Assembly: GCA_044892525.1 (NCBI GenBank)
Contig: CM097885.1
Coordinates: 211,668,001 to 211,732,000, forward strand
DNA: 64,000 nucleotides
Reading direction: 5' to 3'
Origin: Schmidtea polychroa
Lineage: Eukaryota
This document shows positions 1 to 38,149 of the stretch, piece after piece. The notes under the pieces are model-generated. The model had not been told where the DNA came from. It made no database searches and worked only from the letters and a program-made list of their open reading frames with translations. The number at the start of each line of letters is the position of its first letter. The first letter of the stretch is position 1. The translations under genes were made by a program, and so were the position numbers.

Positions 1-66
1 TATTGTTCCACCACCTCTATTACATGGAATATAAGAACTCATTTATTAATAATTTAAAATGAATCT

Positions 67-831: not shown

Positions 832-879
832 TTCTTTAGTAGTAAATTCATATAGTAAAAATCCTTATAGTAAAAATCC

Positions 880-1344: not shown

Positions 1345-1366
1345 TTTGTATTTTAAAACTTCGTAT

Positions 1367-2261: not shown

Positions 2262-2283
2262 TTTAATGGTATCAAAAATGGTA

Positions 2284-2862: not shown

Positions 2863-2878
2863 TTTATAATAAATAAAA

Positions 2879-3670: not shown

Positions 3671-3681
3671 GGCTTGTCGAC

Positions 3682-5067
3682 TTAAACATCTGTTTTCTGT
3701 AGTTCATTATTATAAAATCCACCTAATATTTTTTCATTATTTAAATCAAAGATGCTATATGTTATTGGAGTTGTATAATTTATTTTATTTATAATAAAAA
3801 TTTCATTTGTCCATTTTGCTGTGAATCCTTTTTCAAATTTATTTTTATATTTAAATATTCTTACTCGGTCACCAATTTTAAACTTTGGTTTTTCAATAAC
3901 ATCATTTTCAATATTTACCACTTTAATGGTTTCAGGCTTCATGGAAGCATTTAAAGGTGTTAATTTTATAGAACTATGTACATCATTATTATATTCATTT
4001 ACAATCTTTTGTAACAATTCATTGTTCCATTTTTGTTTTCCAATAGCAGTAAAATATTTCCACATTTTATTTTTTAATGTTCTATTTAATCTTTCAACTA
4101 CGACTGTTTTTCCTTCGTTTTCTGTTGAATATAATTTAATATCATTTTCATTTAAAAACTTTGTAAAAACTTTGTTATAAAATTCTGTTCCTTTATCACA
4201 CCATAAATATTTTGGGATTCTTTGATTTTCTTCAAATATATTTTCAAATGCTTCTGTAATAGAATATCCTGTTTTATTTTCTAAACACCTTGCAAAAGCA
4301 AATCTTGTATATAAATCTATTACAGTTAAAATTATTTTATATTTTTCAGGGTCTGATGATTTGGGCATAAAGACTAAATCTGCAGACCATGTTTGATCTT
4401 TTTCATGTACTTGAACTTTTAAATATTTTTTATTTTTTCTAAATTCATGGTGTAATTCCTTTGCATATTTTATTTCTGATTCTGTTGGGGTTTGTAAACT
4501 AGTCTTGGATATATTCTCAAGGGATCTTTCAATGTCTGCTTGTTCGATAATCTTTTTATAAGCAACATCTTTTGCTATTCTAGGAAGTCTTGCACCCATG
4601 GTGATCGGACTGTGTCCTAAGCCTATGAAAATCTTACCTTTCATTGCTAATTTAACTAGAGCTCTTTGAATCTTTTCTTGGGTTGATGGATTTTGGATAC
4701 TATTTAAATCATGTATTAAATTCACATCTGCAACATGTCTATCTCTAAGATTTGTTGAATTGTATGCAATGTCATGTTTTAAAGCTGCTTGATCAATTCT
4801 ATTTATTGGTTCTTCTCCTTGTTTGGGATTATTATTTTCATCTAATCTAATATCTAATCTTGTTCCTGGTCCGGTGTAGTTGTGTTTAAATAAATGTCTT
4901 TCACCTGGATATTTTTCTGTAGTAAAAGGTTTTAATATTGAAGATGTTGTTTTTGAAGATTGTAGATCGCCTCCTGTATGTTTTTTAGTTTTTAAATGAC
5001 TTGCTTTATGATGTCTTGTAACTTGACAATTACAAGTTTCACATCTCCAATATTTATTTAGAGACAT
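3682..5067 (-). CDS. Zn-finger + parvovirus-type PLA2 domain + retroviral-type (rve) integrase fusion
   Basis: N-terminal CxxC...H..H finger; HNYTGPGT and DQAALKHDIAY PLA2 motifs; DDE core SADLV / WCDKGTEF / VVERLNRTLK; no C-terminal chromodomain. Confidence 0.9.
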   Translation of the reverse strand: MSLNKYWRCETCNCQVTRHHKASHLKTKKHTGGDLQSSKTTSSILKPFTTEKYPGERHLFKHNYTGPGTRLDIRLDENNNPKQGEEPINRIDQAALKHDIAYNSTNLRDRHVADVNLIHDLNSIQNPSTQEKIQRALVKLAMKGKIFIGLGHSPITMGARLPRIAKDVAYKKIIEQADIERSLENISKTSLQTPTESEIKYAKELHHEFRKNKKYLKVQVHEKDQTWSADLVFMPKSSDPEKYKIILTVIDLYTRFAFARCLENKTGYSITEAFENIFEENQRIPKYLWCDKGTEFYNKVFTKFLNENDIKLYSTENEGKTVVVERLNRTLKNKMWKYFTAIGKQKWNNELLQKIVNEYNNDVHSSIKLTPLNASMKPETIKVVNIENDVIEKPKFKIGDRVRIFKYKNKFEKGFTAKWTNEIFIINKINYTTPITYSIFDLNNEKILGGFYNNELQKTDV

Positions 5068-5096
5068 TTTAAAATGTTAAAATATCAGGGATTATA

Positions 5097-6372
5097 TTAA
5101 GAATCTCCCCTAACATTTTCGATTATTGAAATCTTTCCACCATATAATTTCATTTCTATTTTCTTTTCTTCTAATATTAATGTATATACTTTAGCTTTAA
5201 AATTAGAATCCTTTGTTACATGAAGTGTAACATCAACATTATTTATGGCTAATCGATCATCTTGGTCTGATACATTTATACAAAATATAGAATATAAATT
5301 TTTGAAATCTTCTAAACTTAATTGCGGTTCAACTTTGAAATCATAACATGTTTCAATATAATTTAGATATGGGAATATGTTTTCATTATTTTCAATATTA
5401 AATTCCATTCTATTTATTGGATAATAAGAACTATTTAATTGAATTTGTATTGTTTTTAAATTATCATCTCCAATCTTTTGAATAAATAGATTGTTATTTT
5501 TTTGGAAAGATGAATCTGTTTCTTTGAATCCAATCAAGATATATCTTGGTCGGTATGCTAAATTTGCTACCTTTATAGAATATGTTGAACCCTCTGTCAT
5601 ACTAAATTCACTACAGATTCTATTTAAATAATTTACATTTATAGACTTGTTGGAATTTAATCTTTCAAGGAGTTTAATCTCAGAATGTGGGTTTAATGTC
5701 CATTCAGGTATATGTAATTCAAGTGTTGATAATTTTAATTTAGCTTTTGTATCTACAGCTCCATAGAACAATCTTTTATCACCTTCTACTCTATTACAGA
5801 TGAATTCTATAAAAACATTATGAAGTATACGATTATAGTTTTGAAGGAATCCAAACAAGTGTTTTAATTCAAAATAACCTTCAAAGTTCAGCTCTTTTAT
5901 GGTAACCATGGTTTACATCTAAACCATCTTTATCTAAATCCCCTTTATTAACATCAGGAATCCAACCTGTTAATTCACCATATTCGTTTTTATAATCACA
6001 ACCAGTCAAAATAAAATTTAACATTGTAGAATATACTCCCGGATGCAAAACAGTTTCAATTTCTGATGATCCTAGTTTTAATCTCATGTTGGAGAATAAA
6101 TTTGGAAAGAAATTATTTTCTAGGGTTATATCTTTGTTTGCTTCAATTTCTAATTCTACTTTGTAATATAATTTGGCATTACAAATATCTATTGGGTTTG
6201 ATGTTTGAAGAGATTGAAAAACTATATCACCCCTACGATTTAAGTTTGCAATAGATCCTGAAGTTGGAGAGATTTTTAAAATATCATTTTTTTTAATTTC
6301 ATGAGTAAATTCTTTATTATAATCAAGATTTAATTTATTTTTTTCTTGAATTTTAAGATTTATGTTATTCAT
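5097..6372 (-). pseudogene. Major capsid protein (double jelly-roll) of element A, split by a frameshift near 5881-5909
   Basis: Two overlapping ORFs (163 aa and 270 aa) together give LENNFFPNLFS...HPG, ELKHLFGF..YNRIL, RPRYILIGF and YSIFCINVS.Q, typical of Polinton MCPs. Confidence 0.8.
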
Positions 6373-6428
6373 TTTTATATATTAAAATTTACACACACAA
6401 AATAGGATTAATTAAATATATTATGTAA

Positions 6429-10587: not shown

Positions 10588-10600
10588 GTCTAGGGCTACC

Positions 10601-12048
10601 AGTAGTGAGAAGTGAGGAGTATAAACCAAGCCAAATATAAAGTATTACGTAATATTTGTATGGGTACCCTAGGGGGTGGTATGGTGTTACACAATTTTGT
10701 AAAATTACATAATCACATATACAATGACGTGATTACATTTTTGGTTACGTAATAATCGGTTTTTAATTTACGTCATAATTGACCCCTCTTACGTAATAAT
10801 TGACCTTTAACCGCTACATCATATTTAACCTTTGACCCCTTACATAATAATTGACCTTTGACCTCTTATGTAATAATTATACTTCATTAGAGTAGTGAGG
10901 AGTATAAACCAAGCCAAATATCCCTGGAAAAAATTCAATACATTTTGATAGAGTAGTGAGAAGCGAGGAGTATAAACCAAGCCAAATATACAGTATTACG
11001 TAATATTTGTATGGGTACCCTAGGAGGGTGGTATGGTATTACATAATTTTGTAAAGTTACGTAATTATATATAAAGTGACGTAATAATTGTTTTTAATTT
11101 ACATCATAATTGATCCCCCTTATGTAATAATTGACCTTTGGCCTCTTACATCATATTTAACCTTTGACCCCTTACATAATAATTGACCTTTGACCTCTTA
11201 TATAATAATTATACTTCATTAGAGTAGTGAGGAGTATAAACCAAACCAAATATCCCTGGAAAAAATTTAATACATTTTGATAGAGTAGTGAGAAGCGAGG
11301 AGTATAAACCAAGCCAAATATACAGTATTACGTAATATTTGTATGGGTACCCTAGGGGGTGGTGTGGTATTACATAATTTTGTAAAGTTACGTAATTATA
11401 TATAAAATGACGTAATTATATTTTTGATTACGTAACAATTGTTTTTAATTTACATCATAATTGACCCCCTTATGTAATAATTGACCTTTGACCTCTTCCA
11501 TCATATTTAACCTTTGACCCCTTACATAATAATTTACCTTTGACCTCTTATGTAATAATTATACTTCATTAGAGTAGTGAGGAGTATAAACCAAGCCAAA
11601 TATCCCTGGAAAAAATTTAATACATTTTGATAGAGTAGTGAGAAGTGAGGAGTATAAACCAAGCCAAATATACAGTATTACGTAATATTTGTATGGGTAC
11701 CCTAGGGGGTGGTGGTATGGTGTTACATAATTCTGTATAATTTTATTATAGATATATATTTATTGAATTATAAACATATATAAGAAAAAGTCATACATAC
11801 ATTTTTGAACCCGAGTACTATAATGATGACAATGAATGTGATAAACACTCGGTNNNNNNNNNNNNNNNNNNNNNNNNNNNNNNNNNNNNNNNNNNNNNNN
11901 NNNNNNNNNNNNNNNNNNNNNNNNNNNNNNNNNNNNNNNNNNNNNNNNNNNNNNNNNNNNNNNNNNNNNNNNNNNNNNNNNNNNNNNNNNNNNNNNNNNT
12001 TGTTCACAACAATAAAAACTTTGACTATTTCACAATAACAACGTAAAA
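10601..12048 (+). repeat. Left TIR of element B, with three ~330-350 bp tandem units plus a partial unit (N gap 11854-11999)
   Basis: Units begin at 10601, 10952, 11284 and 11634; reverse-complement match to 24022-25104. Confidence 0.93.
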
Positions 12049-12092
12049 GGCAAATTATATTGATAAAAATTTTAAAAATTATATAAAACATT

Positions 12093-12284
12093 TTATTTCA
12101 AGTTAAATACATCTGTGTGGTATGCTTTACGCATTTCAGCTAATAAGATATGGACTGATTGATCTCTTTTAAAGTCGTGACAGCATGGACACCCATTGGG
12201 GCATGACAATCTCATAGAATCTTTGCAAACAATGCAATTTTCAATGCATCTAGTGTCAGACCTTAGAACCATATCGTAGTGCAA
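12093..12284 (-). CDS. Small Cys-rich hypothetical protein (possible Zn-binding); 5' end uncertain
   Basis: CIENCIVCKDSMRLSCPNGCPCCHDF; frame stays open ~110 nt further upstream without an ATG. Confidence 0.45.
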   Translation of the reverse strand: MHYDMVLRSDTRCIENCIVCKDSMRLSCPNGCPCCHDFKRDQSVHILLAEMRKAYHTDVFNLK

Positions 12285-12518
12285 CTCTAAAAGTTGTTCT
12301 ATATTAATACCTGTTAAACGAAATATTTTATTTATAAGTAACTCTGGTGCACAATAATCTATGGTATTATTCCTGGGTATAATTCTTGAAACTTCTTTAA
12401 AATTACTTCAAATAAGTAAACTAGATATAAAGATTATTAATTATAAATAAAAATATATTCTTTACCTTTTGACATTTTTTCTAACTACTAAAAACAAAAT
12501 CAATACAAACAAAATTAA

Positions 12519-12965
12519 TTAATTAATTAACATTTTAATTTCTGAGATAATGTTCTCTACATAGTGATTATAGTCTAAAGTTTTTATTCCAAGTAATACA
12601 ACCTTTCCGCTTGAAAATACATTAACACAAACTGGATTATACTTTTGAAGACGTAAGGCAGGAAATATTTCCGGTTCAAACATACATTTAGCTTTTTGTT
12701 GTAATTCGTATAAATTTATAAATTTACCGATATCAGCAGTTACTGTAATGGACTGAATTTGTAAATCTTGTATCTTATATTTCAAATCAACTAATTTAAG
12801 AGGTTGCTTGCATCCCATTATCCGACATCTACCCGACTTGAAAAATATAATTGGATACTTCCCACTTCTATCCACAACTTGTTGGGGTTTACCTAATGGG
12901 AATTTCATGTTTTTGACTAAACACTTACCTTTATAATTAATGTTGCTCAATAATAATGAAGTCAT
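12519..12965 (-). CDS. Compact TATA-binding-protein (TBP)-like protein encoded by the Maverick
   Basis: Two TBP-repeat signatures: SNIN...IIFFKSGRCRIMGCK and IQSITVTADIG..INLYEL......FEPEIFPAL.L....PV.VNVFSSGKVVLLGIK (compare TBP YEPELFPGL...LLIFVSGKVVLTGAK). Confidence 0.85.
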   Translation of the reverse strand: MTSLLLSNINYKGKCLVKNMKFPLGKPQQVVDRSGKYPIIFFKSGRCRIMGCKQPLKLVDLKYKIQDLQIQSITVTADIGKFINLYELQQKAKCMFEPEIFPALRLQKYNPVCVNVFSSGKVVLLGIKTLDYNHYVENIISEIKMLIN

Positions 12966-13039
12966 GTAATAAAATTTAAATAATTTTTATATACTTATAA
13001 TAATAAATTTAAACAAATATAAACAATAATATTAATGAA

Positions 13040-13678
13040 ATGAGATTAATTAAGATGGAATTAAGAAATGATGCCGTTTATCAAATTGTAGGTCCCAGTG
13101 GTAGTGGAAAAACTTTATTTGTTTGTAAATTATTACAATCGAATATGTTCAAATCAAAATTTAATAAAATATACTGGCATAAGGGAGCTGATGACGAGCA
13201 TGGTATGACACAAGATCAGTTTTGTAAATTAAAAATGAATATAATGAAGGGATTTGATAAAAATTGGTCATCTAGATTACATCAAGGTGATGCTATAATT
13301 ATTGATGATTTATATCAGGAAGCAAATAAAGAGAAAGATTTTAATAATTTATTTACAAAAACCAGTAGACATATCGGAGTAACGGTTATTTTTATAACAC
13401 AAAATTTATTTCATCAAGGCGGAAGTCATCGAACGCGTAATTTGAATGTACAATATTTAGTTATTTTCAAAAATCCTCGAGACGCAACTATAATTGATTT
13501 TCTCGCAAGACAGGCTTATCCTAATGATAGAAGATATTTAATTGAACCCTTCCAAGATGCAACAAAGATAGCACATGGGTATTTATTTTTCGATTTTACT
13601 CAACAATGTCCAGATGATTTACGTGTTAGAACAGATATTTTCAATGAAAAAGGTGTTACGATTTATAAACAAAAATGA
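13040..13678 (+). CDS. Packaging ATPase, element B
   Basis: GPSGSGKT, IIIDD, FTKTSRH, FITQNLF, YLVIFKNPRD, GYLFFDF.Q...DDLRVRTDIF (classic Maverick ATPase). Confidence 0.95.
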   Translation: MRLIKMELRNDAVYQIVGPSGSGKTLFVCKLLQSNMFKSKFNKIYWHKGADDEHGMTQDQFCKLKMNIMKGFDKNWSSRLHQGDAIIIDDLYQEANKEKDFNNLFTKTSRHIGVTVIFITQNLFHQGGSHRTRNLNVQYLVIFKNPRDATIIDFLARQAYPNDRRYLIEPFQDATKIAHGYLFFDFTQQCPDDLRVRTDIFNEKGVTIYKQK

Positions 13679-13700
13679 AATACATTATTATTATTTAAAA

Positions 13701-13838
13701 ATGTCATTTAAAAAAGTTATAGTTCAACGTGAAAAAGTTACAAAGCAGAAAGAAAACAAAAGAAATACTAAACGGAAAGAAAAAACTATAAATAAGACTA
13801 AAAAATCAATGAAAAAGAAGAGTTGGATTAAATTATAA
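13701..13838 (+). CDS. Very small lysine-rich ORF (45 aa), possible DNA-condensing peptide
   Basis: MSFKKVIVQREKVTKQKENKRNTKRKEKTINKTKKSMKKKSWIKL; a similarly basic ORF precedes the related fragment at ~36060. Confidence 0.35.
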   Translation: MSFKKVIVQREKVTKQKENKRNTKRKEKTINKTKKSMKKKSWIKL

Positions 13839-13869
13839 ACAAATTAATTAATAAAATACATCATTAACA

Positions 13870-14196
13870 ATGAAATTACAACGTAGCTTACCATATTTTA
13901 ACGCCTTGCTAAAGGCTCCAAATAATAAAAGGATGAGTATATTACAAGCTTTTCCATCATTTGTTATTGATGATTTACTCGAAGCTATTGTTAACATAGT
14001 TCGTGGTAATGTAAATATTAGTAAAGCTAAAAGGTTTGTATTAAAAAGACATAAGAAATCTCTTTTATCATTAGTTAACACAAAAAATCGAAATCTAATG
14101 AGAAAAATAATGTATAAACAACAAGGCGGATTTTTAGGTACATTAATTCCAATTGTATTATCGGCTATAAGCACAATTTCGTCATTAAATTCTTAA
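13870..14196 (+). CDS. Conserved small Maverick protein with C-terminal QxGG-FL hydrophobic tail (PW-like)
   Basis: L.E.IVNIVRGNV.IS....LKRHK..L..L and QQGGFLGTLIPIVL; degraded homolog at 36290-36600. Confidence 0.75.
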   Translation: MKLQRSLPYFNALLKAPNNKRMSILQAFPSFVIDDLLEAIVNIVRGNVNISKAKRFVLKRHKKSLLSLVNTKNRNLMRKIMYKQQGGFLGTLIPIVLSAISTISSLNS

Positions 14197-14280
14197 AATA
14201 TAATATCATAATGGGTGCTAAGAATTCATTACCGGATAAACATAATTTAGATTTAAATATATTAACATCATGTTGTAATA

Positions 14281-15403
14281 ATGAAGGAAACATTTTCCAA
14301 AAAGGTCAAATCAAAGAAGAAAATATTAGAGAAAAAACTCAAAACGATTTGGACAAACCCGAAAGATCCAGATGGTTTTGGTGGTGTAGAAAATCTTGCA
14401 AAAAGAGTAAATAAATCAAAGAAAGAAACTCAAAAATGGTTATCTAATCAATTAGCCTACAGTCTAAATAAACCAATATTAAAAAGATTCCCCACGAGAT
14501 CTTATAAAACATTTGGTGTTAATGATTTATGGCAAATGGATTTAATGGAAATGATTCCATTTTCAAAAACTAATAAAGGATACAAATATATTTTGACATG
14601 TATTGATGTATTTAGTAGATACGCTCGTGCTATCCCAACAAAATCTAAATCAGCTAATGACATGGCTGATGCATTAAAAACATTATTTGCTGACGGACAG
14701 CCTCGTAATTTACAAACAGATTTGGGTAAAATTATAAATTAAATAATTTTAATTAATTTTAAATTTAGGTAAAGAATTTTATAATAGCAAAGTTAAAGAA
14801 ATTATCAAAGGAATAAATCATTACTCAGTATTTTCACAATATAAAGCAGCGCACGTGGAAAGATTCAATCGTACTTTAAGAGATCGTTTGAAAAAATATT
14901 TTGTATATCAAGGCAATAAAACGTGGATAAATGTATTGTTGAAAATAATTTATAGTTACAATTTTTCACCTCATAGAGGAATAAATGGAATGAGACCAAT
15001 CGATATTTATTCAACAAATAATATTGATACTTGGATATCACAACAAGATAAATCAAAAACAAAAAAGCCGAAATATAAAGTAGGAGACCATGTTAGAATA
15101 AGTAAAATCAGTGCTTCTCCATTCATCAAGAATTTTGATAACAATTGGAGTGATTAAGTTTTTAAAATATCGAAAATAGATACTAATCAAAATCCGGTCA
15201 TGTACTTTATTACAGATAATGAAAACGATCAAGTCAGTGGCAAATTCTACGAACCAGAACTACAAGTCATTCCATCACCCACAATCTTCAGAATTCAAGA
15301 GATTTTAAAAACTAAATCGGACGGGAAATATAAACAATACTATGTGAAATGGCATGGTTATAAACATCCTAGCTGGATATCTGAAAACCAATTGATTAAA
15401 TAA
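14281..15403 (+). pseudogene. Chromodomain-bearing rve integrase of element B, with a 43-nt intron (14726-14768) and one nonsense codon (TAA 15155-15157)
   Basis: WQMDLM, LTCIDVFSRY, QTDL|G|KEFYN restored by splicing, VERFNRTLR, NWSD*VF (conserved E replaced by stop, same frame continues), YYVKWHGY...SWI chromodomain. Confidence 0.9.
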
Positions 15404-15408
15404 ATATT

Positions 15409-16431
15409 ATGAAGGAAAACCAGTTTTATATGATTTTACCTAGTAATAGTTGTCCTCTTATTTATCCTGATAATAATGCTAGTAATTTTAAAGTTGAATT
15501 TCAAAACCCAATTTATTTGAATGGGAAGTGGGAAGTAGCTTTGATTGATTTTACATTTGTGTATAATCATTTTCCGTATTACAGTAATTCATGGGTACAA
15601 TACGAATTTAAAAAATCATGCGAAGAAACTAAATACTTGAAAATTGATAATCAAAACAAAATCTTAGAAATTTTAAATTCTACATATAATCCAGATGTTG
15701 ATGTGTTCTTGGAAAGATATGAAAACTTAGTGATAGTTTGTCCACATGTTCCATTTAAAATATCATTTCTTGACACCAAACATGCATCTAAGTTTGAATT
15801 AAAAACCATATCAATCATTAGCAAAACTGACCATTGTTGAATTAAACTACCTAAATTTACTGAAAATAATATCATTGAACAAATTGGGATAACTATAAAT
15901 TATGATATCAAGACAAAATTCGAACATTATTTTGAAGATGAATTATTCTTAACTACTTTATCAGAGTTGCGAGGGTATTTAATGACAATTAATCCATCTC
16001 CATTTAAAGAAATACATCTTCAAAATCAAGAATTAGTAAAAATAACACTTGTAGATGATATTTCAAATATTACCTTTGATCAAAAATTAACAAAAGCTTT
16101 AGGATTAAAGAATCAAACTTATAATGAAAAAGACTTTGTTGGTGTGAAAATTCCAAAAATATTTAAAATTCATCAACAAATGTTTATTTATTCTAATATC
16201 ATTGAACCAATAAATGTTGGTGATGTAAGAGTTCCTCTATTAAAATCGATATGGATTAAAAGATATGAACAGGGAGAGGTTGTACAGTTAGAAATAAAGA
16301 ACCCAACGTACCTTCCAATTTCATCTTCATCTATAAACAACATTGAAATTAATATTCGCAACGATAGTGGAAATTTAGTTAAATTTTCAAAAGACACCAA
16401 AACACATTTAACACTACATTTTCGTAAAAAA
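15409..16431 (+). pseudogene. Minor capsid protein (PX/penton-like) with in-frame TGA at 15838-15840
   Basis: FYMILPSNS....YPDN.ASNF......PIYL.G.WEVAL and MFIYSNIIEP..VGD..VPLL, P.YLP......I.I.IRND.G..V.F, LTLHFR; both halves are in the same frame. Confidence 0.85.
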
Positions 16432-16833
16432 ATGAATAATCCTGATATTGTAAACTTTTATAGTAATAGTCAATCTGGTGGAGATTTACCATATTTTGTT
16501 GGTAAACAATATGGAACAGGTTGGTTAAAAACAATAGGTCGATTTGCTTTACCAATTCTTAGACGCATGGGTAATTTTGGTATGAAAACTGCACATGATG
16601 TAATAAATAACAATTCAAAAATTCTACCTGCTTTAAAATCAAATGTTTTATCTGAAATTAAACATTCACTACCTGATGTAATTCAACATTTGCCTACTGT
16701 AATTAATAAAGTATTTGATGTTTTTAATAAACAAGAGAATGAACAAAAAGGTGGAATGATTAAACGCAGAAAAACATTAAAGAAGCATATAAACAAAAGA
16801 ATGAAAGGCTTTGGAACTATATTCGAAAAATGA
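16432..16833 (+). CDS. PZ-like core protein precursor (in frame with the penton ORF)
   Basis: MNNPDIVNFY..SQSGGDLPYFVGKQYGTGWLK..GRFALPILR, basic C-terminus; QxGG motifs. Confidence 0.7.
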   Translation: MNNPDIVNFYSNSQSGGDLPYFVGKQYGTGWLKTIGRFALPILRRMGNFGMKTAHDVINNNSKILPALKSNVLSEIKHSLPDVIQHLPTVINKVFDVFNKQENEQKGGMIKRRKTLKKHINKRMKGFGTIFEK

Positions 16834-18056
16834 TTAGTGCAAAATCTGAATTATGTATTTTTGATAGACCATCACCTCAAGCAGTAATTGAACATGGTTC
16901 ATTTGAAGATATTTATCCAACGAATTCAATTACGGATACTGGTACCTCTTCAATTCAATTTTACATTAACGGATCTCAAACCGAATATTTAGATTTGAAT
17001 GATACTTTACTTTATCTTCAGTTGAAAGTTGTAAATAATGTAGGTGAAAATATTTCTGATGATTCTGTTGTAACTGCAAACAATTTCTTTTTCCAAACTC
17101 TTTTTAAAGAAGCTGAATTAATTTTTAATTCTATTAAAGTTGAAGGAGGAAATGATACATTTGCTCATAAAGCATTAATCGAAACCATATTAAATTACAA
17201 TCATGATACAAAACGTACATGTTTAGAAGGTATGGGGTACAGTGAAGATGATAATATAAGAAAAGCGTGGATTGCAAAATCTAAACCATTTTCATTATGT
17301 TCACCAATACAATTTGATTTTATGGATCAACCAAAATATTTATTACCTGGTGTTAGTGTCCAAATTAAATTGACGAGATCAAGTCCATCACATAGTTTAA
17401 CATGTACAAAAGTAGAACCTAAAATTGAATTATTAGATGCAAAATTAATGGTAAGAAGAGTTCGAGTTGAACCATCCGTTTTAGCTGGTCATCAAATTGG
17501 ACTTGCTTCAAGAAATGCAATTTATCCTTTGAGAAGCAAGGAAGTTGTCGAATTTTCGTTACCTACTGGATCTTCTTCTTTTTATAAAGAACAAATCTTT
17601 GGTGATCGGCGATTACCAAATTTTATCCTTGTAACATTTCAAAGAAATAAAAGAAATAATGGATCACTAACACATTCTTATTCAATGTACGACCACAATA
17701 ATGTAAAATCAATAACTTTATTGAAAGGAAGCGACTATCGTGAAAAATATAGTCAAGATTTTGAAAATGATAATTATAGTACAAGTTATATGCAGTCAAT
17801 AATTAGAAACATGGGTTACCTTAATAAGAATATTAATTGTGGAATTAGTATGTCTGACTTTAAAGAAAAGTATCCATTCTTTACATTTGTATTGGCTCCA
17901 GACTTTGATCTTAATCAAAGTCAATTGCCACAGCAAGGAAATTTAAGACTTGATATTAAATTTGGAACACCTCTAACAGAATCAATTTCTGTAATAGTCT
18001 ATGGCGTCTTTGAAAAAGAGATTCAAATTACATCCAATCGTACAGTACTAGTGTAA
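16830..18056 (+). CDS. Major capsid protein (PY, double jelly-roll), intact ORF
   Basis: KSEL.IF..P..Q..IE.G.F..IYP, EYLDLNDTLLYL.LKV, QPKYLLPGVSV.IKL.RS, RLPNFILVTF, FFTFVLAPD, GNLRLDIKFG.PL. Confidence 0.95.
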   Translation: MISAKSELCIFDRPSPQAVIEHGSFEDIYPTNSITDTGTSSIQFYINGSQTEYLDLNDTLLYLQLKVVNNVGENISDDSVVTANNFFFQTLFKEAELIFNSIKVEGGNDTFAHKALIETILNYNHDTKRTCLEGMGYSEDDNIRKAWIAKSKPFSLCSPIQFDFMDQPKYLLPGVSVQIKLTRSSPSHSLTCTKVEPKIELLDAKLMVRRVRVEPSVLAGHQIGLASRNAIYPLRSKEVVEFSLPTGSSSFYKEQIFGDRRLPNFILVTFQRNKRNNGSLTHSYSMYDHNNVKSITLLKGSDYREKYSQDFENDNYSTSYMQSIIRNMGYLNKNINCGISMSDFKEKYPFFTFVLAPDFDLNQSQLPQQGNLRLDIKFGTPLTESISVIVYGVFEKEIQITSNRTVLV

Positions 18057-18153
18057 ATAAAATTTGAAAATGATTGGCTTGAACTATAAACCAAATTAGG
18101 AAACAATAATTATTAAAGATGAAGTAAGAATTTCATTTTTATTACTTTAATTT

Positions 18154-18504
18154 ATTGATAATAGTTCTATTCACATTGAATACATAGGTCGAAGATTGTT
18201 CGGAGCTGAATTTCTTGGAGTTTTTCCATTAGATAAAATACCATATATTGATGTAAACAAGGCTTTAATTGTAAATACTCAATCTTGTAATCTCAAGGAA
18301 GAGCATTGGCTCGCAGTTTATGTGAAACCGGAAAAAATATATGCATTTGATCCCATGGGGTTTTATTATCCTCCTCTATTAATATCAAAACTTCAATCAT
18401 TGTTAATGCCAATTGAATATAATAAAATTCGCTATCAAAGTCCATTGACAAAAACATGTGGGCAACATTGTTTAGCGTGGTTGAAGTCAATGAAAGATCT
18501 TTGA
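18154..18504 (+). CDS. Adenain-like protease of element B; start codon probably mutated (ATT at 18154 in place of ATG)
   Basis: FLGVFP.D, IVNT....EHWLA, FDPMG, YQ....TCGQHC; no ATG in the open frame upstream of 18196. Confidence 0.85.
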   Translation: MDNSSIHIEYIGRRLFGAEFLGVFPLDKIPYIDVNKALIVNTQSCNLKEEHWLAVYVKPEKIYAFDPMGFYYPPLLISKLQSLLMPIEYNKIRYQSPLTKTCGQHCLAWLKSMKDL

Positions 18505-18669
18505 ATATAAGAAAATTTAATCAAATAAATATTATCTTGTTAGTTTGTAATTTTTTATGTCATTCTACTAGTAAATATAATTTAATGGTATGTGATTATG
18601 TGATTGGTTTCTTGAATTTTATTGGTTACTATTTTATTGAATCATTGTTGTGTAATATGTAGTATATAA

Positions 18670-18937
18670 ATGAAAACAATTCATTTAAAAGTCACTTTTA
18701 TCAATACCCAAACTTTTGTAAGTTTTATGTAATTAATTAATTAATAATTCTCTTATAATGTTTTCTAGGTAATGAATTGCAACAACAACAACAATTACAA
18801 CAACTCAAATAACATGAATAACGTCAATAGCAAGATTTGCAACCACTCAAATAACATGAACAACAAAAACTTAAACACCAACAATGATAAAATGGTTCGA
18901 AATAATTCCAAGAAAATTAATGCAAACATGATAAAAT
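18670..18937 (+). CDS. Two candidate exons (18670-18717, 18769-18937) encoding an Asn-rich leader, separated by a 51-nt intron
   Basis: ATG at 18670; GTAAGT...TTTTCTAG intron 18718-18768 joins in frame to the N-rich ORF; second GTAAGT donor at 18938. Confidence 0.5.
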
Positions 18938-19232
18938 GTAAGTATTATATATATTTTTCAGTATTTAAAGATATTTTCATTTTAATTAAATTAATATTAA
19001 TTTAAATATTATATTTCATTTTAATTTATTTTACAAATTTGAATTTAAATTAATTTACTCAAAGTAAAAATTAAAACAATTTTGAATTTATTAGATAATA
19101 ATAATTTATGATTTTATTTAAATTTAATTATTTTAAATCAATTTAAATTTATCAATAAAAAAAAATTTTTTTTAATGCAATATTTTTAATTAAATTATAA
19201 TGTATACCATAACATAAGAAACAAATAAAGAC

Positions 19233-19722
19233 TTATAATATATTAGTATCAATTATTTTCCATATAGGTCTGATTGTTTCTTTTCCTTCTTTAAAACCCT
19301 GAATTTGAATTTTTATCATAAAATATGAATTTTCATTTTCTTTTTTAATATTTTCTAAAGCATAATCTTTATCACAATTCATAAATGTAAAGTTTTCATT
19401 GAATTGAATATTTTTATTGATAGCCAACAATAATTCTAAAATATTTTTTCTATCGATATCTCCAATTTTACCTACTTGTATATTATATAAACTCTGTTTC
19501 AAAGTTACAGGTTCCTAATAAAAAAAATTTAATTAATATTTGATTAAATGATATAAATATATTTACTTTAAATGAATAAGTTATTGGGTATTTTAAATAT
19601 TCCATAGAATATTGTAGGAACTGAACAGGAGATTTTCTAATAAGACTAACTGCCGATGTTGAATTTTCCTGTAGAATTAACTTTATTATATCTGAATTTA
19701 CTTGTTTCTCCATCTTTTTCAC
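19233..19722 (-). CDS. Orphan ~145-aa protein formed by splicing a 52-nt intron (19515-19566)
   Basis: Minus-strand GTAAAT...TTATTAG intron joins ORFs 19483-19722 and 19233-19502 exactly in frame (...YSFK|EPVTLKQSLY...). Confidence 0.6.
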
Positions 19723-20095
19723 TGAACTTTCTAGAATAATGATTAAGCAATACTAGATAATGATAATAAAATTACTTTTATATTGTTGCATCATTAAATA
19801 TAATAATTTCATGCACTCAGTATATATATTAATTTTAAAAATCGAGTTGACCAATTAGATTCTTTTTAACAAATCATTTTAATTTTATTGGATGAAAGAT
19901 TTTATGTGTGTGTATAGTATTTTTGATTTTTTAAATATTTATTTCTAATAATCAATTTGTGATGTTCATATATTCATTTTCATATATTCATTTTTATTTA
20001 TAATGCAATCCTTTGATAATTTCTTTTGAAACTTAGGTATCTTATATCCAAAGTTTTGTAATTCTTCCTTTCATGACAATGATTGTCATAAAACT

Positions 20096-23000
20096 ATGGA
20101 AAAATACTATGGCCAACCCCATAACCGTGTTATTTATTTTGTTTGCCCCATTTGTAATTCCACTGAAAAATTAAATTATTCTAACTTTTATGATCAACAT
20201 AAAGATCATTTAAATCGATTTAATCTTTTGAAGAAAAAACAAATTTTTAAATTACCAAATAATTTCTCAATTAATAAAAGGAAATCTGATTTGCCTATAA
20301 GTAACCCTCGTCCATCTAAAATTAAAAATTTAAATAATAATGATCAAATTATTATTCTCTCGGATTCTGAAGACGATGATGTAGTTTTAAATAATATGGT
20401 AACTCTTCCTGATTTTGAAAATGATGTGGATATAGATTTTCTATCTGACTCTCAAAATGGAGTTGATATAATAACTCTTTCTGACTCTGATGCCGAAATA
20501 ATTAATGATAGTACGATACAATATGGTGGATCATTAGAACCGGTTGTAAATTATGATTTACGTAAATCACATGCCATAGTTAAAATGATGGTTGAAAATT
20601 TAAATTTAAATTCTTTAACCGTACCCACGCCCTTAATTAATAAATTTAATAACGTTACCAGAGAAATGGGTTCTGTAAAGATTCAATTTTGTATAGAAGT
20701 GGAATTTGAAAAAGATGGAGAATTTCAATCTTTCGTCATTTCAAATTCTGCAAGACCCATGAGTGATACCTTTTTAGATGAAGGTATTGCTATTCTCAAT
20801 GAGAAAATTACTTTAATTAATGAAAAGGGAAGTAATTGGATTATTAATAAAATTAAAGAAATACATTTTGTTATTACAAAATTTTCTCAAATAAGTAGAT
20901 TGAGTGGGAGGGGTTCTCTACCAACTCCTAAATCATTATTAAATAAACATTGCGTAATGAATATTAACAATACGGATGATTTGTGTTTCATCTATAGCAT
21001 TTTGGCTATTTTGAAATACGATGACGTTGATGGCAATCATAGAAATCGAATTAGTAATTATAATTTGTCTGATCTAGTCTTTGATCCTTCTGACTTACCG
21101 CTGCGTCTCTGTAATATACCTAAATTTGAAGATAAAAATCCAGGGCTTTCGATTAATGTTCTTGCATACGATGAGGATGCTTTAGTGGATATTTTAAATA
21201 ATTCTGAAGTATTAAAACATCCTTATGTTGACATCATACATAGATCGAAAGTTGTAGGCGGAAGACCGACTAATTTAATTTTGTTGGAAAGCAGTGATTC
21301 TTTTCATTATATAGGAGTCACTAATCTTGATAGACTTTTAAATTGTCGTAATTCTACTGTTACTAGTACTCGAATTCAAAGTCTGTGGTGTAATCGCTGT
21401 TTAAATGGCTTCCGTACACTTGAATCTTTAGATAAACATAAAGGTTTATGTGAGAAAAATCAATTAGGAACAACTTTATATACTTTACCATTAAATAAGA
21501 ATTTATATTTTAATGATTGGTCTAAAACAGTTACTCCCCCTTTTGTGGTTTACGCTGACTTTGAGGCTATCTTACCTACTGATAATAGATATTTTCAAAG
21601 GCGCTTGCCGATTTCTGCAGGTCTTTTGCTAATAAATAATTTCACAGGGACTAAATTATATAAAAAATTTTTAGGGTTAGATTGTATTGTTAGTTTCCTT
21701 AAAGAGATTGAAAAAATTGGTATGAAAACAGTTTTACCTTATTTTTATAAAAATTCGAAAAAGAAAATTATTTTTACAGATGCTGACCTTATTTCTTTTT
21801 CTTCCGCAGTTATGTGTTATCTTTGCAAGAAAACTTTAGTAAACCCGACTAAAGATCATGATCACTTTACTGGTAAATATTTGGGAGCAGCTTGTTCAAC
21901 TTGTAATAATTCTCGTCAAATAAGATATGAATTTCCAATTGTTTTCCATAACTTGCGAGGGTATGATCTTCATCATATCCTCAAATACGGATTGAGTAGC
22001 TTTAAATCTTGGAATATTTCATGCATTCCAACGACAACTGAAAAGTTCTTAACATTATCTGCGAGAATAGGTGGTTTAAATATTAAATTTATCGATTCCT
22101 GCCAATTTATTAATAGTTCGTTAAATGACGCTGTTAAAACTCTTACTAATTTACCGATAACACGATCAGAATTTAGGGGAACCATTGTTAATAATAAAGG
22201 AATTTTCCCATATAATTTTGCCACTAGTCTTGAAGTGCTTCAGTCAACTCCCCAATTACCGCCAATTTGGGATGGTGTTACTGAAGACGAATATTCTATG
22301 GCTGAAATTATATGGAGGGAAACCAACTGTAATAACCTTTGTGATTATATGATGGTCTATCTAAAACTAGATGTCTTTCTTTTAGCTGACTTTTTCCAGC
22401 AGTTTCGAAATAAATCTTTAGCTCATAATCGTCTTGAACCTTTAAACTTCTTGGGCATTCCCGGTATGTCTTGGAATTCAGCTCTGATGACTTTAGACGA
22501 ACCCATCGAGTTGATTCAAGACATGGAGATGTTTAATTTCTTTGAGGGTGGTATAAGAGGGGGGTTGACATTTGTAAACAAACATTATGTTAATACAAAT
22601 GAAAATACTGAACTTCTATATATCGATAATAATAATTTGTACGGCTGGGCTCTTAGCCAAAAACTACCTAGGGGTGAATTTTCTTGGGTGACGGATGAGC
22701 CTGAATTAATTAATTTATTAAAAGACTGTGAATCTATTGATCTAGATTCACTTTCATATGGGTATACTATGGAAGTGGATCTAGATATTCCAACATCTAT
22801 TCACGATAAACTTAATGATTTTCCGGTTGCAGCTGAAAAAATGTGTGCTCCAGGATCTAAAGTGGAGAAGTTGATGCTTACACATTTACCCAAGAAGAAC
22901 TATGTTCTTCATTGGAAACTTCTACAACTTTATCTTTCTCTTGGAGTAAAAGTTACTCAAATTCACAGGGCTATCAAATTTCATCAGTCTACTATATTCA

Positions 23001-23956
23001 AAAATTACATTGACACAAACACCCAACTTCGAGCTGTGTCAACAAATACTCTTGATAAAAACTATTTTAAGCTTCTTAACAATAGTTTATATGGAAAGAC
23101 AGTCGAAAATTTGAAGAAACGATTGAACTTGAGATTGTGTAACTCAGCTTCTAAACTGATTACTTATTCCTCTAAACCCACATTTAAAAAGACTTATAAA
23201 ATAGATCATGACTTAATAGCCGTTCTATTAAATAAGGATTCAGTGTGTTTGGATAGACCTAGTTACATTGGTCAATCTGTACTGGATCTATCCAAATTAC
23301 GTATGTATCAGTTGCAATATATTGATTTACAAAAATATCGAGATGATTTTAGCTGTGAAATCAATATTATTGCAGGTGACACTGATTCCTTCTTTTTAGA
23401 GGTTAAAGGATGCAAATTAGATGTGCTTTTACCAGCTATGGTAAGAGATAACATGCTGGATACATCGAGAGCTCTTGATTCCGTCATTGGTAAATTCAAA
23501 GATGAAAATAAAGGGGGTAGATATAAGGAATGGGTGTTTTTAAGGCCTAAATGCTATAGCCTTTTGGGTGATAAAGAGAGCAACAAGGCTAAGGGAATAA
23601 CATTGAAGGGTACCGACTTAAAACATCAATCGTACCTTGATTGTTATCATAATAATTCGATGATTTCAGTACCACAATCTCGAATAGTAAGTAAAAATCA
23701 TCAGTTATTCACAATAAAAAATATAAAATTAGCCCTAACTAATAATGATGATAAGAGGCATTGGGTAAATAAAAATGAAAGTGTAGCATATGGTCATTAT
23801 AAAATAGTTAACACGGTTATGGGTCATAGTAACAATGCTGAAGTTAGTGATCCGGACGAAGAAAATGATCAATACGTTCAACCATATTTCCCAAATGATG
23901 ATTATGGTCACCCACACTTTCCATATGAAAGGGAACATCAATATGTTCTTGAATAA
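20096..23956 (+). CDS. Protein-primed family B DNA polymerase (pPolB) with N-terminal Zn-finger/terminal-protein region
   Basis: 1286 aa; exonuclease YADFE, FHNLRGYD, YLKLDV; polymerase DNNNLYG, KLLNNSLYGK, GDTDS, KCY, AKGI; endonuclease-VII-like DHDHFTGKYLGAAC..CN; frame open back to an AG acceptor at 20036. Confidence 0.96.
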   Translation: MEKYYGQPHNRVIYFVCPICNSTEKLNYSNFYDQHKDHLNRFNLLKKKQIFKLPNNFSINKRKSDLPISNPRPSKIKNLNNNDQIIILSDSEDDDVVLNNMVTLPDFENDVDIDFLSDSQNGVDIITLSDSDAEIINDSTIQYGGSLEPVVNYDLRKSHAIVKMMVENLNLNSLTVPTPLINKFNNVTREMGSVKIQFCIEVEFEKDGEFQSFVISNSARPMSDTFLDEGIAILNEKITLINEKGSNWIINKIKEIHFVITKFSQISRLSGRGSLPTPKSLLNKHCVMNINNTDDLCFIYSILAILKYDDVDGNHRNRISNYNLSDLVFDPSDLPLRLCNIPKFEDKNPGLSINVLAYDEDALVDILNNSEVLKHPYVDIIHRSKVVGGRPTNLILLESSDSFHYIGVTNLDRLLNCRNSTVTSTRIQSLWCNRCLNGFRTLESLDKHKGLCEKNQLGTTLYTLPLNKNLYFNDWSKTVTPPFVVYADFEAILPTDNRYFQRRLPISAGLLLINNFTGTKLYKKFLGLDCIVSFLKEIEKIGMKTVLPYFYKNSKKKIIFTDADLISFSSAVMCYLCKKTLVNPTKDHDHFTGKYLGAACSTCNNSRQIRYEFPIVFHNLRGYDLHHILKYGLSSFKSWNISCIPTTTEKFLTLSARIGGLNIKFIDSCQFINSSLNDAVKTLTNLPITRSEFRGTIVNNKGIFPYNFATSLEVLQSTPQLPPIWDGVTEDEYSMAEIIWRETNCNNLCDYMMVYLKLDVFLLADFFQQFRNKSLAHNRLEPLNFLGIPGMSWNSALMTLDEPIELIQDMEMFNFFEGGIRGGLTFVNKHYVNTNENTELLYIDNNNLYGWALSQKLPRGEFSWVTDEPELINLLKDCESIDLDSLSYGYTMEVDLDIPTSIHDKLNDFPVAAEKMCAPGSKVEKLMLTHLPKKNYVLHWKLLQLYLSLGVKVTQIHRAIKFHQSTIFKNYIDTNTQLRAVSTNTLDKNYFKLLNNSLYGKTVENLKKRLNLRLCNSASKLITYSSKPTFKKTYKIDHDLIAVLLNKDSVCLDRPSYIGQSVLDLSKLRMYQLQYIDLQKYRDDFSCEINIIAGDTDSFFLEVKGCKLDVLLPAMVRDNMLDTSRALDSVIGKFKDENKGGRYKEWVFLRPKCYSLLGDKESNKAKGITLKGTDLKHQSYLDCYHNNSMISVPQSRIVSKNHQLFTIKNIKLALTNNDDKRHWVNKNESVAYGHYKIVNTVMGHSNNAEVSDPDEENDQYVQPYFPNDDYGHPHFPYEREHQYVLE

Positions 23957-24021
23957 ATTTTGTATTGAAATAAAATTTTATTTAATATAATTATTGTTTT
24001 AGTTCTTATTTGTATCATTTA

Positions 24022-25104
24022 TTTTACGTTGTTATTGTAAAGTATTCTTTAGACTATTTTATTGTGAAATAGTCAAAGTTTTTATTGTTGTGAATTTNNN
24101 NNNNNNNNNNNNNNNNNNNNNNNNNNNNNNNNNNNNNNNNNNNNNNNNNNNNNNNNNNNNNNNNNNNNNNNNNNNNNNNNNNNNNNNNNNNNNNNNNNNN
24201 NNNNNNNNNNNNNNNNNNNNNNNNNNNNNNNNNNNNNNNNNNNNNNACCGAGTGTTTATCACATTCATTGTCACATTATAGTACTCGGGTTCAAAAATGT
24301 ATGTATGACTTTTTCTTATATATGTTTATAATTCAATAAATATATATCTATAATAAAATTATACAGAATTATGTAACACCATACCACCACCCCCTAGGGT
24401 ACCCATACAAATATTACGTAATACTGTATATTTGGCTTGGTTTATACTCCTCACTTCTCACTACTCTATCAAAATGTATTAAATTTTTTCCAGGGATATT
24501 TGGCTTGGTTTATACTCCTCACTACTCTAATGAAGTATAATTATTACATAAGAGGTCAAAGGTCAATTATTACATAAGGGGGGTCAATTATGATGTAAAT
24601 TAAAAAATAATTATTACGTAATCAAAAATATAATCACGTCATTTTATATGTGATTACGTAATTTTACAAATTTATGTAACACCATACCACCCCAGGGTAC
24701 CCATACAAATATTACGTAATACTGTATATTTGACTTGGTTTATACTCCTCACTTCTCACTACTCTATCAAAATGTATTAAATTTTTTCCAGGGATATTTG
24801 GCTTGGTTTATACTCCTCACTACTCTAATGAAGTATAATTATTACATAAAAGGTCAAAGGTCAATTATTATGTAAGGGGTCAAAGGTTAAATATGATGTA
24901 AGAGGTCAAAGGTCAATTATTACATAAGAGGGGCCAATTATGACGTAAATTAAAAAAATAATCAAAAAATATAATTACGTCATTGTATATGTGATTACGC
25001 AATTTTACAAAATTGTGTAACACCATACCACCCCCCCCCCTAGGGTACACATACAAATATTACGTAACACTGTATATTTGGCTTGGTTTATACTTCTCAC
25101 TACT
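24022..25104 (-). repeat. Right TIR of element B, two full tandem units plus a partial unit (N gap 24098-24246)
   Basis: Reverse complement of the left TIR; one unit fewer; terminal copy lacks 7 nt. Confidence 0.93.
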
Positions 25105-25950
25105 GCTACCTAAGATAGCTAAGTTATAAGCAATACAACGAACCATACAACAGGAATATATTTAGCAATGCATTGGCATTCAGATTTCATTTATGTTTGA
25201 TTCTTAGCTACAGTGATATAATATATTGCATTTTAATGTCATACTTGACTTTTAATATTTCAATTATTTTTAGAAAACCATTCAATAAATTTTTTCGTAT
25301 AATTAACCTTTGTTTATGTGAAGGAATTCCTTTTTGTTCTTGATTCTTTACTATGAAATCATCGCAGTGCACTTCTAGAGCAATTGTTTCGGATTTTTTA
25401 ATTACTCAATTAATTTATATCTGAAATCATTTTGGGGAATCGGCACCTACGATAAATAAAAACTAAATATATCAGCTTCTTATTGAAAATAACGTACTTG
25501 TAAAAGAGCAGAAATATTTGCCAATGTCTAGTGCCCAAATTTTGAAGTTCCGCACTGGGAACACTTCGATCGCATTTATAATAAATAAAATTAGCTTTAT
25601 AAAAGGGAATGATATATTTTAATTTGTAAATGGCTAGAAAATAAAAATAACCAATTAATGTAAACCTGGAATTCAAACAGGGATCAACTATCATTTTTGA
25701 CGTCTTACAGTTGGTTTAATAATAATTATGAAACTCCTCAAATTAATATTAATTTAATAACTGTGAACCAAAGTGTCCTAAAATCATAAAAATAAAACAT
25801 AACAGATATTAGTAATTTATTTAGTAATTAGTAGTAGAGACAAATTAGACTCGGAATTAGGATTTATTATTTTATATATTATTTACATGACATAAATTCG
25901 TAATTATTCATAATATATTACTATATACTAATAGAAAAATATAAATTAAG

Positions 25951-26441
25951 ATATTTGGTGATAAAATTGCCCCGCGTTGTGATTATAGAGAAATTCCTAG
26001 TTTATATACTCTAGGGCAACATAATCATCAAGTTTTGATTTTTTATCACCACGCTGGGACCATTAATGATAAATTTTGGCCGGGAGCTGATATCCCTAGC
26101 TACTGGCCCAACACAACTGATACCAATCAAATGATTCAATATTTGGAAAATTCACTAAAGTATTTTAACAATGTTTTATAATCCTAATGAAAAAAAACAT
26201 TCTCAGGGAAAAAGTAAACACTAAATTTCACATTTCTCAAGGAATTTTAACGCCTACATGGAAAACTGTTGTTTTCCATCCATTTTCGTCACTGGAGAAC
26301 TATTTGGCTAATAAATCCAAGCAGGCAGTTCAGGAATGGTTGGAGGGTTTGGTAGAATCTGATAAAGGAAATTTGAACATTGTAATTGTTGACTTTGCCC
26401 AATCTAATGTAATTGATCAAATTATTAAGATGAACAAATAA
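25951..26441 (+). CDS. Host PI-PLC X-domain-containing (PLCXD-like) gene, last two exons (25951-26159, 26207-26441; 47-nt intron)
   Basis: IFGDKIAP, QVLIFYH, W.G..IPSYWPNTTD, FHISQGILTP, NIVIVDF...I..I..N resemble the PLCXD C-terminus; GT-AG intron preserves frame; upstream exons not identified. Confidence 0.65.
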
Positions 26442-36059: not shown

Positions 36060-37735
36060 TGATTTTAAAAGCACGAGTTAAAAACCTTAGAAATTTAGAA
36101 AAGGTATTAGAAAGAGTATTAAAATCAAAGTTCCACCTAAAACTTGTTATACTCCATCCAAAAAAACTTATAACTGAAAATTTCACTGGAATGAATCTTA
36201 TTTCAAAAAATCATAAGCTTAATAATAAGAAGAATAAGAAAAAGAAACAGGCCAAAAATGTTAAAAATCATCAGAGTTTCCTGTTTTTCAATGCATTGTA
36301 AAAGGCACCGTACATAAAAAGAATGAATATTTTACATTCCTTTCCTAATTCTGTTGTCGATGATTTACTCGATATTATACTGAAAGTAGTCAAAGGCAGT
36401 ATTAAAATCAGTAAATCAAAAATGAATTTATTGAATAAACACAGGAAACTTTTGTTATCGCTAGTAAATAATAAAAATCGTAAACAAATGAGAAAAATTA
36501 TATTAACAACAATGTGGATATATTTGGACATTGATACCTTTGGCATTATCATTATTAGGTGGAGTAATAGGAAGTCGATCACAAACAATTGGTGCTAGCC
36601 CTTCATTAACCAATGTTAAATTCAAATTCAAATCTTCTTGCTGTAATGGAGAAGATCTGGACGAACCCGATGACTAAGCAGGTTTTGGTAGAGTGGTAAA
36701 ATTAAAGAAAAGAATTCCAAATTTGAAAACAGAAACCCAGAAGTGGTTATCAGAACAGCTTGCGTACAGTTTGAACAAACCAATGTGGAAAATATTTGCA
36801 ACATGAGCTTATAAAACATTTGGTATTGACGAATTATGGTAAATGGATTTGTTCGAGATGATACTGTATTCGAAAATTAACAATGGGTATAAATATATTT
36901 TAACATGTATTGGTGTTGTCAGTCGCTTTGCCCACGCAACTCCAGTCAAGGCAAAATCTGCAGATGAAATGTCTAAAGCAATTAATAATTTATTGTAAGA
37001 TGGACGGACATCCAGANNNNNNNNNNNNNNNNNNNNNNNNNNNNNNNNNNNNNNNNNNNNNNNNNNNNNNNNNNNNNNNNNNNNNNNNNNNNNNNNNNNN
37101 NNNNNNNNNNNNNNNNNNNNNNNNNNNNNNNNNNNNNNNNNNNNNNNNNNNNNNNNNNNNNAATGGTAAAGTTAAGCAAATCCTGGATCGTCTCAAAATA
37201 AATCATTACTTGGTATATTCTCAATACAAAGCCACAAATATCGAGAGATTTAATTGGAAATTGAGAGATAGATTGAAGAACTATGTCGTACACCAAGTAA
37301 TAAATATGGATACATGTTTTGCCTAAAATTATAATTAGTTATAATCATTCATCACATTTTGGTCTGATATATCATCGAAAAGTTTAGTCAAATTATGGCT
37401 TTCTTAAAAAGTAGAAAAAATTAAAAAACCGAAATAAAGTCTGTGATCATTTTAGAATTAATAAAATTAGTGCTTCACCATTTATTAAAAATTTCGATAC
37501 GAATTGTAGTGATGAAGTCTTTGTAATTTCAAAAGTCAATGTGAAACAATATACGGTTATGTATGTCATGAAAGACTATGATAATAATGAAGTTAGTGGT
37601 AAATTTATGAGCAAGAATCACAAGTTATTCCTCCACCAAAAGTATTTAGAATTTAAACAATATTATAAAAATTCTTTTTTTATTGGTTTCTTGATACAAA
37701 TCGTCAATAATGATGACATAACCTTTCTTTAATCG
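36060..37735 (+). mobile_element. Degraded Maverick fragment related to element B (basic ORF, PW-like gene, integrase)
   Basis: Colinear with 13700-15400: DDLL..I.K.V.G.I.IS, TQKWLSEQLAYSLNKP, YKYILTCI, ERFN..LRDRLK; many stops and frameshifts; N gap 37017-37161. Confidence 0.88.
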
Positions 37736-38149
37736 GCTTGAACAGTTTTTATCAAATCCCTTTTTACTATTTTCATATTTTTTAACTTACAGAAATTATC
37801 TTGAATCAATATTTTTGATTTGATCTACTTATTTTTTACTTGACCTACATGATCCAGCGATGGCCTGTTTTTAAAGTCAATTTGACATACACAAAACTCT
37901 GAAAAAATTACATGAAAAATAATAAAAATTATGAAAAATTACTGAGTTTGATTTGACTTACAGAAAACAGTTTAAAAAAATGATCAAATTACATTAAGAA
38001 TCGCGAAAAATAATAAAAACTCTGAAGAAACATTAAAAATTAAGAAAAATGAAAGAATTTATTTGACCTACATAAAAGTTTTGGTGACCTACAAAAAATA
38101 TTAGGATTTTTAGAAAATATTCCTTACCCCGGTGGGTACTTGATTCAGC

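Follow-up and report, generated by a model that had tools for sequence, protein, structure and literature searches.

The core genes of vertebrate Mavericks are described as intronless (PMC8097293), and those of nematode Mavericks likewise, with introns in cargo genes only (bioRxiv 10.1101/2022.07.12.499685); here and below, statements attributed to sources cited by accession refer to portions of those texts. A large Maverick survey used a prokaryotic gene finder on the intronless assumption (PMC10120064), and a survey of that kind would overlook spliced Maverick lineages or count them as dead. Maverick-Polinton-like elements of dinoflagellates hold introners, which are mobile host intron families acquired mostly after integration (PMC11957031). 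Ginger1 transposases are encoded by retroviral-type DDE integrase genes with 1-4 mostly GT-AG introns (PMC2836005), parallel intron gains at homologous positions were reported in Daphnia (43/90; PMC4202315), and splicing of the third intron of the P element is regulated by an exonic silencer, PSI, hrp48, and piRNAs (PMC7776569). In the literature covered, which left most subscription papers, Repbase Reports, and supplements outside its scope, there was no report of inherited spliceosomal introns in Maverick core genes; no such case was found in the portions seen of PMC10748475, PMC8502044, PMC6431247, PMC11296320, PMC12220804, PMC8547959, or bioRxiv 10.1101/2022.07.28.501842. The window (the whole stretch of 64,000 nucleotides analyzed here) comes from an A/T-rich animal genome of 781 Mb and carries an element whose integrase, protease, and probably polymerase genes appear to be split by introns. 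Taking the evidence as a whole, we favor with high confidence an explanation in which the integrase insert is a functional GT-AG intron of the major spliceosomal class, carried by a young Maverick family.

The element and its interrupted integrase gene

The element was assigned to the Mavericks/Polintons on the basis of its terminal inverted repeats, a 6-bp target duplication (10595-10600 and 25105-25110), and genes for a retroviral-like DDE integrase, ATPase, protease, and capsid protein (Table 1). The protease matched Peptidase_C5 (E=2.9e-4), a score that, like the DJR-like match of the capsid frame (0.003), lies just or well below the curated cut-offs. For the polymerase-like frame at 20037-23956, a Pfam search at E<0.01 returned Endonuclease_7 only, and motifs spotted by eye in a 1,308-aa frame of the element are presumably those of a family-B-like polymerase. 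The Endonuclease VII-like segment occupies residues 594-627 of the polymerase-like frame (20030-23956; E=4.5e-4). A TBP-like gene (12519-12986, minus strand; Pfam TBP, E=1.2e-14) is also present inside the element and is common to related families. No intron was seen in the ATPase, capsid, or TBP-like frames of the element. All eight related elements that were compared have two frames in place of the single frame at 15841-16833, so that two genes appear to have been fused by an indel in the window copy, and the stop at 15838-15840 looks specific to this copy. A second, different Maverick-like element occupies 1-6400 of the window; its integrase (3685-5076, minus strand) is one intronless 464-aa frame and carries a phospholipase A2-like domain.

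Table 1. Positions in the window of the Maverick/Polinton, its genes and candidate introns, and a related fragment.
Feature	Position	Strand	Evidence or remark
Full-length Maverick/Polinton, 14.5 kb (14,504 bp)	10601..25104	.	Long terminal inverted repeats, ends AGTAGT..ACTACT; 6-bp target duplication
Candidate 45-nt phase-1 intron, unnamed gene	12421..12465	-	Gene 12475-12093, downstream of TBP-like gene
Packaging ATPase frame, no intron seen	13013..13678	+	Pox_A32 E=8.7e-7
Integrase exon 1, catalytic aspartates 1 and 2	14281..14725	+	Pfam rve E=1.4e-10; ATG position; homolog alignment to retroviral integrase cores
Predicted 43-nt phase-1 GT-AG intron, in-frame stop on retention	14726..14768	+	Frame, copies, junction counts
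Integrase exon 2, catalytic glutamate and chromodomain	14769..15403	+	Pfam Chromo E=2.6e-4; premature stop at 15155-15157 in window copy
Major capsid protein frame, no intron seen	16764..18056	+	DJR-like E=0.003, weak
Candidate 41-nt phase-2 protease intron	18124..18164	+	Exon 1, 5 nt (18119-18123); exon 2, 18165-18504
Candidate 51-nt phase-0 polymerase intron	18718..18768	+	Between leader exons 18670-18717 and 18769-18937
Candidate 1,099-nt phase-1 polymerase intron	18938..20036	+	Joins Asn-rich leader to main frame 20037-23956; donor and acceptor phases agree
Candidate 52-nt phase-0 intron, unnamed gene	19515..19566	-	Gene ~19713-19233, antisense within the 1,099-nt polymerase intron
Decayed fragment, ~88% like the (ATT)n-intron lineage	36060..37735	+	N over intron site

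The initial annotation had placed a 43-nt insert in the integrase gene, and its description held throughout: the insert starts with GT, ends with TTTAG, and lies in phase 1; the integrase frame is broken in the TD.G.EF motif; and removal of the 43 nt restores collinearity through the ERFNRTLR motif. The upstream frame (14266-14742) terminates within the insert and the downstream frame is offset by one. The codon that is split lies two residues past the second catalytic aspartate, and in the joined protein, where X marks the junction, TDL-X-KEF is followed by ERFNRTLR and then by the chromodomain. An uninterrupted [TS]D.G.EF motif was present in all 120 full-length single-ORF homologs listed (126 were found), one of which (P0001) matched solved retroviral integrase cores at E=3e-6, with the motif aspartate aligned to the cores. 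Among 13 nearby GT/GC..AG pairs that restore the frame, the collinear motif was obtained from the 14726-14768 pair only. As an estimate of chance, GT..AG ends occur in 25 of the 11,937 43-mers of the element, and this is the sole 43-mer among them with GTA..YAG ends and at most 4 G+C. The insert has 2 G and no C (GC 0.05, against 0.29 in the exons); TTAAT words were noted by eye, which at 95% A+T are uninformative as a branch point. According to the sequence, retention would end the protein five codons on, upstream of the catalytic glutamate. With its GT donor, pyrimidine-rich AG acceptor, and restored collinearity, the insert has the makeup of a spliceosomal-type intron. A self-splicing group I or II intron was rejected, given the length of 43 nt, the absence of any Rfam match in a scan of the whole element, and the lack of structure on folding of the insert (z -0.53).

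An extra stop in exon 2 (15155-15157) is the window copy's own and was missing in 29/29 other copies compared; because of it, this copy is probably dead as an integrase gene. The claim that host introns in the window belong to the same size class stood in part: a 47-nt GT-AG stretch is present at 26160-26206, but the 45-nt opsin intron was not found in a scan of 38000-46000 on the plus strand. The window does hold an opsin-type receptor gene (39640-44924), and LTR-retrotransposon pol remnants (RT, RNase H, and integrase; 45932-49075, minus strand) apparently lie within an intron of it.

Copies, related families, and selection

The insert is not a one-off. The copy survey comprised 30 loci from 40 scored matches, and all 29 top copies other than the window's hold the insert at ~99% identity, a count that is ascertained since the query itself held the intron. 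Intact ends were found in 28 of these and a changed acceptor in one; the copies are ~1% apart, so conserved intron ends add little. Genome-wide, the exact donor junction of the family occurs 90 times and the exact insert sequence 83 times, always at the integrase site (79 by coordinates, 4 read). A mobile intron (introner) was rejected for these exact copies, 83/83 being at one site. The uninterrupted, intronless motif pattern gave 112 genome matches. Among the 100 of these that were listed there was no intronless copy of the window's family; one only has the family's junction letters, and it is 71-80% like the window family and 94% like another in exon 2, which places it in a different family. 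Exon 2 is open over 190 codons in 26/30 family copies. No near-identical full-length protein of the spliced type was present among 453 candidates (best identity 80%), which is weak evidence against a working intron. The related fragment at 36060-37735 has N letters where the intron would lie, as had been noted, and cannot be scored.

Two groups of families were distinguished by their inserts. Lineage A comprises the window's family and a sister with a diverged 42-nt intron (support 100/99 in the DNA tree). Lineage B, found by a search with part of the decayed fragment (36780-37016), has exons ~73-76% identical to those of the window family and carries at the same base an insert of the form GT-(ATT)n-TTAG. 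A pattern for the acceptor side had 1,981 matches in the genome, and 60 of these loci were fetched from the start of contig C1, largely in order and with the window family left out. Their selection made use of the acceptor side only, and all 57 loci that could be scored have an insert beginning with GT at the same base. Fifty-five belong to lineage B, with inserts of 42-174 nt plus one of 306, and 53 of these inserts are multiples of three because of trinucleotide slippage. The remaining two are of a third type, 42 nt long and stop-bearing, with 15 exact genome matches. In all, the inserts fall into three sequence types, measure 30-174 nt with a single one of 306, and share base and phase; the position is constant while interior sequence and length vary, as in a spliceosomal intron. 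The putative intron of lineage B looks unrelated to that of the window, and lineage B appears far more abundant. At two lineage B loci (L123 and L124) the in-frame, stop-free insert measures just 30 and 33 nt, respectively, which is possibly below the spliceable length of the host.

A ribosomal hop or frameshift over the insert, or plain read-through in lineage B, was judged barely credible. The matched GGT-AAA codons at the two junctions would suit a hop, and 52/55 lineage B inserts are in frame and stop-free, as read-through would have it; a hop would, however, have to do without RNA structure (z -0.53) and make different shifts for lengths of 42, 43, 55, 80, and 113 nt, and read-through would put ~12 to 55 mostly isoleucine residues next to the catalytic aspartate.

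Selection on exon 2 was estimated between families. The window family and its 42-nt sister gave dN/dS of 0.147 and 0.107 at dS ~1, and exon 2 mismatches between the two lineage A families fall at 38-40% of third positions against 11-15% of first and second positions in 5/5 copies; lineage B gave 0.17-0.34 (5 pairs). Because purifying selection is seen between two families sharing a stop-bearing insert, exon 2 was probably translated after the insert arrived, and this argues for splicing of the insert. The same result, together with that within lineage B, stands against a dead-gene insertion that spread passively while the integrase of intronless sister families moved these families, as do the GT-AG ends of three sequence types at one site and a protease gene that has no in-frame start codon unless spliced. 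Such passive spread is very improbable, even though the 112 intronless-motif matches could supply integrase in trans and the window copy has its own stop. A family-wide spliceosomal-type intron is thus favored on comparative grounds, and the element very likely needs the host splicing machinery. It would be transcribed in the host nucleus, and the host spliceosome would cut out the 43 nt to give an integrase with the D-D-E core and chromodomain, as homology and selection suggest.

Outside the host genome, 26 shorter homologs were surveyed, 15 of which were read. ORFs with 72-85% identity terminate just past the same site (P0121, P0122 with P0147, P0124 with P0148, P0125, and P0143). P0121 is 97% like a 42-nt-family copy over 70 residues, and its host may be of the same kind as that of the window; the protein tree places P0122 with lineage A and P0148 with lineage B. 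The P0125 ORF stops precisely at the site and falls on a branch separate from either lineage; it would be either a third occurrence or a simple break. Distant metagenome and viral loci had the uninterrupted motif in 21/21 readable cases of 38, 17 not being scored. One distant metagenome integrase (L169) matches in three frames, possibly reflecting introns at other sites or decay.

Further candidate introns and the history of the site

The initial annotation had proposed that this lineage gained host-style introns, and the element seems to hold more of them than it listed. The protease frame lacks its own start codon. Ahead of it lie a first exon of 5 nt and a candidate intron with GTAAG..TAG ends, 36-41 nt long, whose position is the same in 8/8 of the fetched elements in which the start of the protease gene is present (5 lineages), including families with an intronless integrase; the search pattern demanded GT..AG, and 1/54 matches has a duplicated donor. 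Protease homologs without the interruption have an N-terminus that is likewise short and similar, and three outside ORFs seem to start by read-in from an intron of this kind. For the candidate polymerase introns, leader exons that resemble those of the window family but differ in sequence occur in related families (at unaligned positions), 8 further stretches that were fetched have the acceptor at the same codon, and a donor of matching phase closes the Asn-rich leader in the window family and two other lineages; no matching leader donor was identified in lineage B. The candidate intron at 19515-19566 recurs at the same position with different sequence in the (ATT)n lineage (2 lineages in total), and that at 12421-12465 at the same position in 4 lineages (39-48 nt), the gene having an exon 2 frameshift in the window copy. 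Because these introns are at positions common to several lineages, the clade was probably already spliced, in protease, polymerase, and accessory genes, before the integrase intron arose.

Several related observations were made. A homolog of the nested antisense gene (~19233-19713) is found elsewhere in other families, adjoining the TBP-like module. Lineage B has an acidic accessory gene of at least 4 short exons between protease and polymerase (L181 tail/L182 head; L184). In a family with an intronless integrase (L186 and L194), an (AAT)n microsatellite lies within the candidate polymerase intron.

Intronless sister families read AG/GT or GG/GT at the integrase site, which is therefore a natural proto-splice site, as far as these families indicate. 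The GGTAAA noted at both junctions is present (the repeat is 10/11 nt), but origin by duplication of the proto-splice site, as originally proposed, did not hold up: the intron core is unlike the flanking exon, with 960/1000 shuffles scoring as well. The repeat does not single out duplication either, because any insertion at an AG/GT or GG/GT site would be expected to give it.

Two parallel gains, in lineages A and B, form the simplest history and are moderately favored. Each lineage clusters with sequences that lack the intron (families in the case of A, one further copy in that of B), with support of 96/98 and 87/90 in the protein tree and 84/85 and 94/94, moderate only, in the DNA tree. The DNA tree used the 3 best of 6 fetched copies for the sister family, and a separate, quick protein tree 24 of 110 own-genome rows after near-duplicate removal plus 60 of 120 homologs. 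P0125 was counted in the protein tree with the above support values and left out of the protein AU test. A single old gain followed by precise losses, or transfer of the intron by recombination between families, is less probable but a serious contender. It would account for the common site and phase and for the similar basal lengths (42, 42, and 43 nt); at dS 1-2 homologous introns would be unalignable anyway, and a single clade of all intron-bearers was not rejected by the protein AU test (p=0.07). That clade was rejected on DNA (p=0.0018), however, and trees of the ATPase, capsid, and protease (6-8 rows each) do not pair lineage A with lineage B as sisters either. By step count, two gains require 2 steps, whereas one gain with its at least two losses requires at least 3. 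The protease intron shows no loss in 8/8 elements, and the 100 listed intronless matches hold no intronless copy of the window's family. On the favored history of parallel gain, the integrase intron would be a later acquisition, arising, most simply twice, at a codon pair that forms a ready-made splice site. Beyond the intron itself, the strongest points are that one site probably gained an intron twice and that the most abundant lineage has a microsatellite intron free of stops.

Regulation, significance, and comparison with known systems

Tissue regulation like that of the P element, which the initial annotation had raised, is a guess by analogy. Minimal A/T-rich introns are normally constitutive, the five other candidate introns of the element point to general intron tolerance, and in a planarian Polintons are reported to be controlled through chromatin and piRNAs (PMC8532177); all three count against a regulated switch with the intron retained in most tissues and spliced in germ or stem cells. 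That switch is improbable, though retention would give a truncated protein in lineage A or one interrupted by poly-isoleucine in lineage B and the P element offers a precedent (PMC7776569). A further, quite unlikely reading is that two lineages gained an intron at the same base because splicing there throttles an active integrase. The length of (ATT)n in lineage B would then tune splicing, retention giving an in-frame inert protein that escapes nonsense-mediated decay, and damping would have let intron-bearing families out-amplify intronless sisters. This reading draws on the 1,981 intron-side against 112 intronless pattern matches, obtained with patterns that are not equally strict. Constitutive splicing is the most likely mode, amounting to a host dependence that the element tolerates, with no switch, and the insert is best read as working like an ordinary short host intron within a genuine Maverick.

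A need for splicing in integrase, protease, and polymerase would call for nuclear expression and tie the element to hosts that splice ~40-nt introns, which bears on host range and horizontal transfer. The presence in one genome of intron-bearing and intronless families, with tens to about two thousand copies, makes a compact test system for parallel intron gain at proto-splice sites and for the fate of stop-free introns that are multiples of three.

As in the P element, a transposon enzyme would need host splicing, and retention truncates the protein (PMC7776569), but the exonic silencer and control by PSI, hrp48, and piRNAs are features of the P element, whereas the window element is known from sequence alone. 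The likeness to Daphnia is repeated gain at one position (PMC4202315); the Daphnia gains were in host genes in populations and were confirmed by other means, while those proposed here concern a virus-like element and derive from its sequence. Ginger1 shares with the window element integrase genes of a DNA transposon that have introns (PMC2836005) but, unlike a Maverick, is a small cut-and-paste element without polymerase or capsid genes. The window element resembles animal Mavericks/Polintons in its TIRs, 6-bp target duplication, and integrase, ATPase, protease, capsid, and presumed polymerase genes, and differs from described Mavericks (PMC8097293) in that its core genes are not all intronless, integrase, protease, and probably polymerase being split. 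Like dinoflagellate introners (PMC11957031), its introns are of spliceosomal type and lie within Maverick-like elements; unlike them, the intron studied here occupies one integrase site in 83/83 exact copies and appears to have been inherited with the element.
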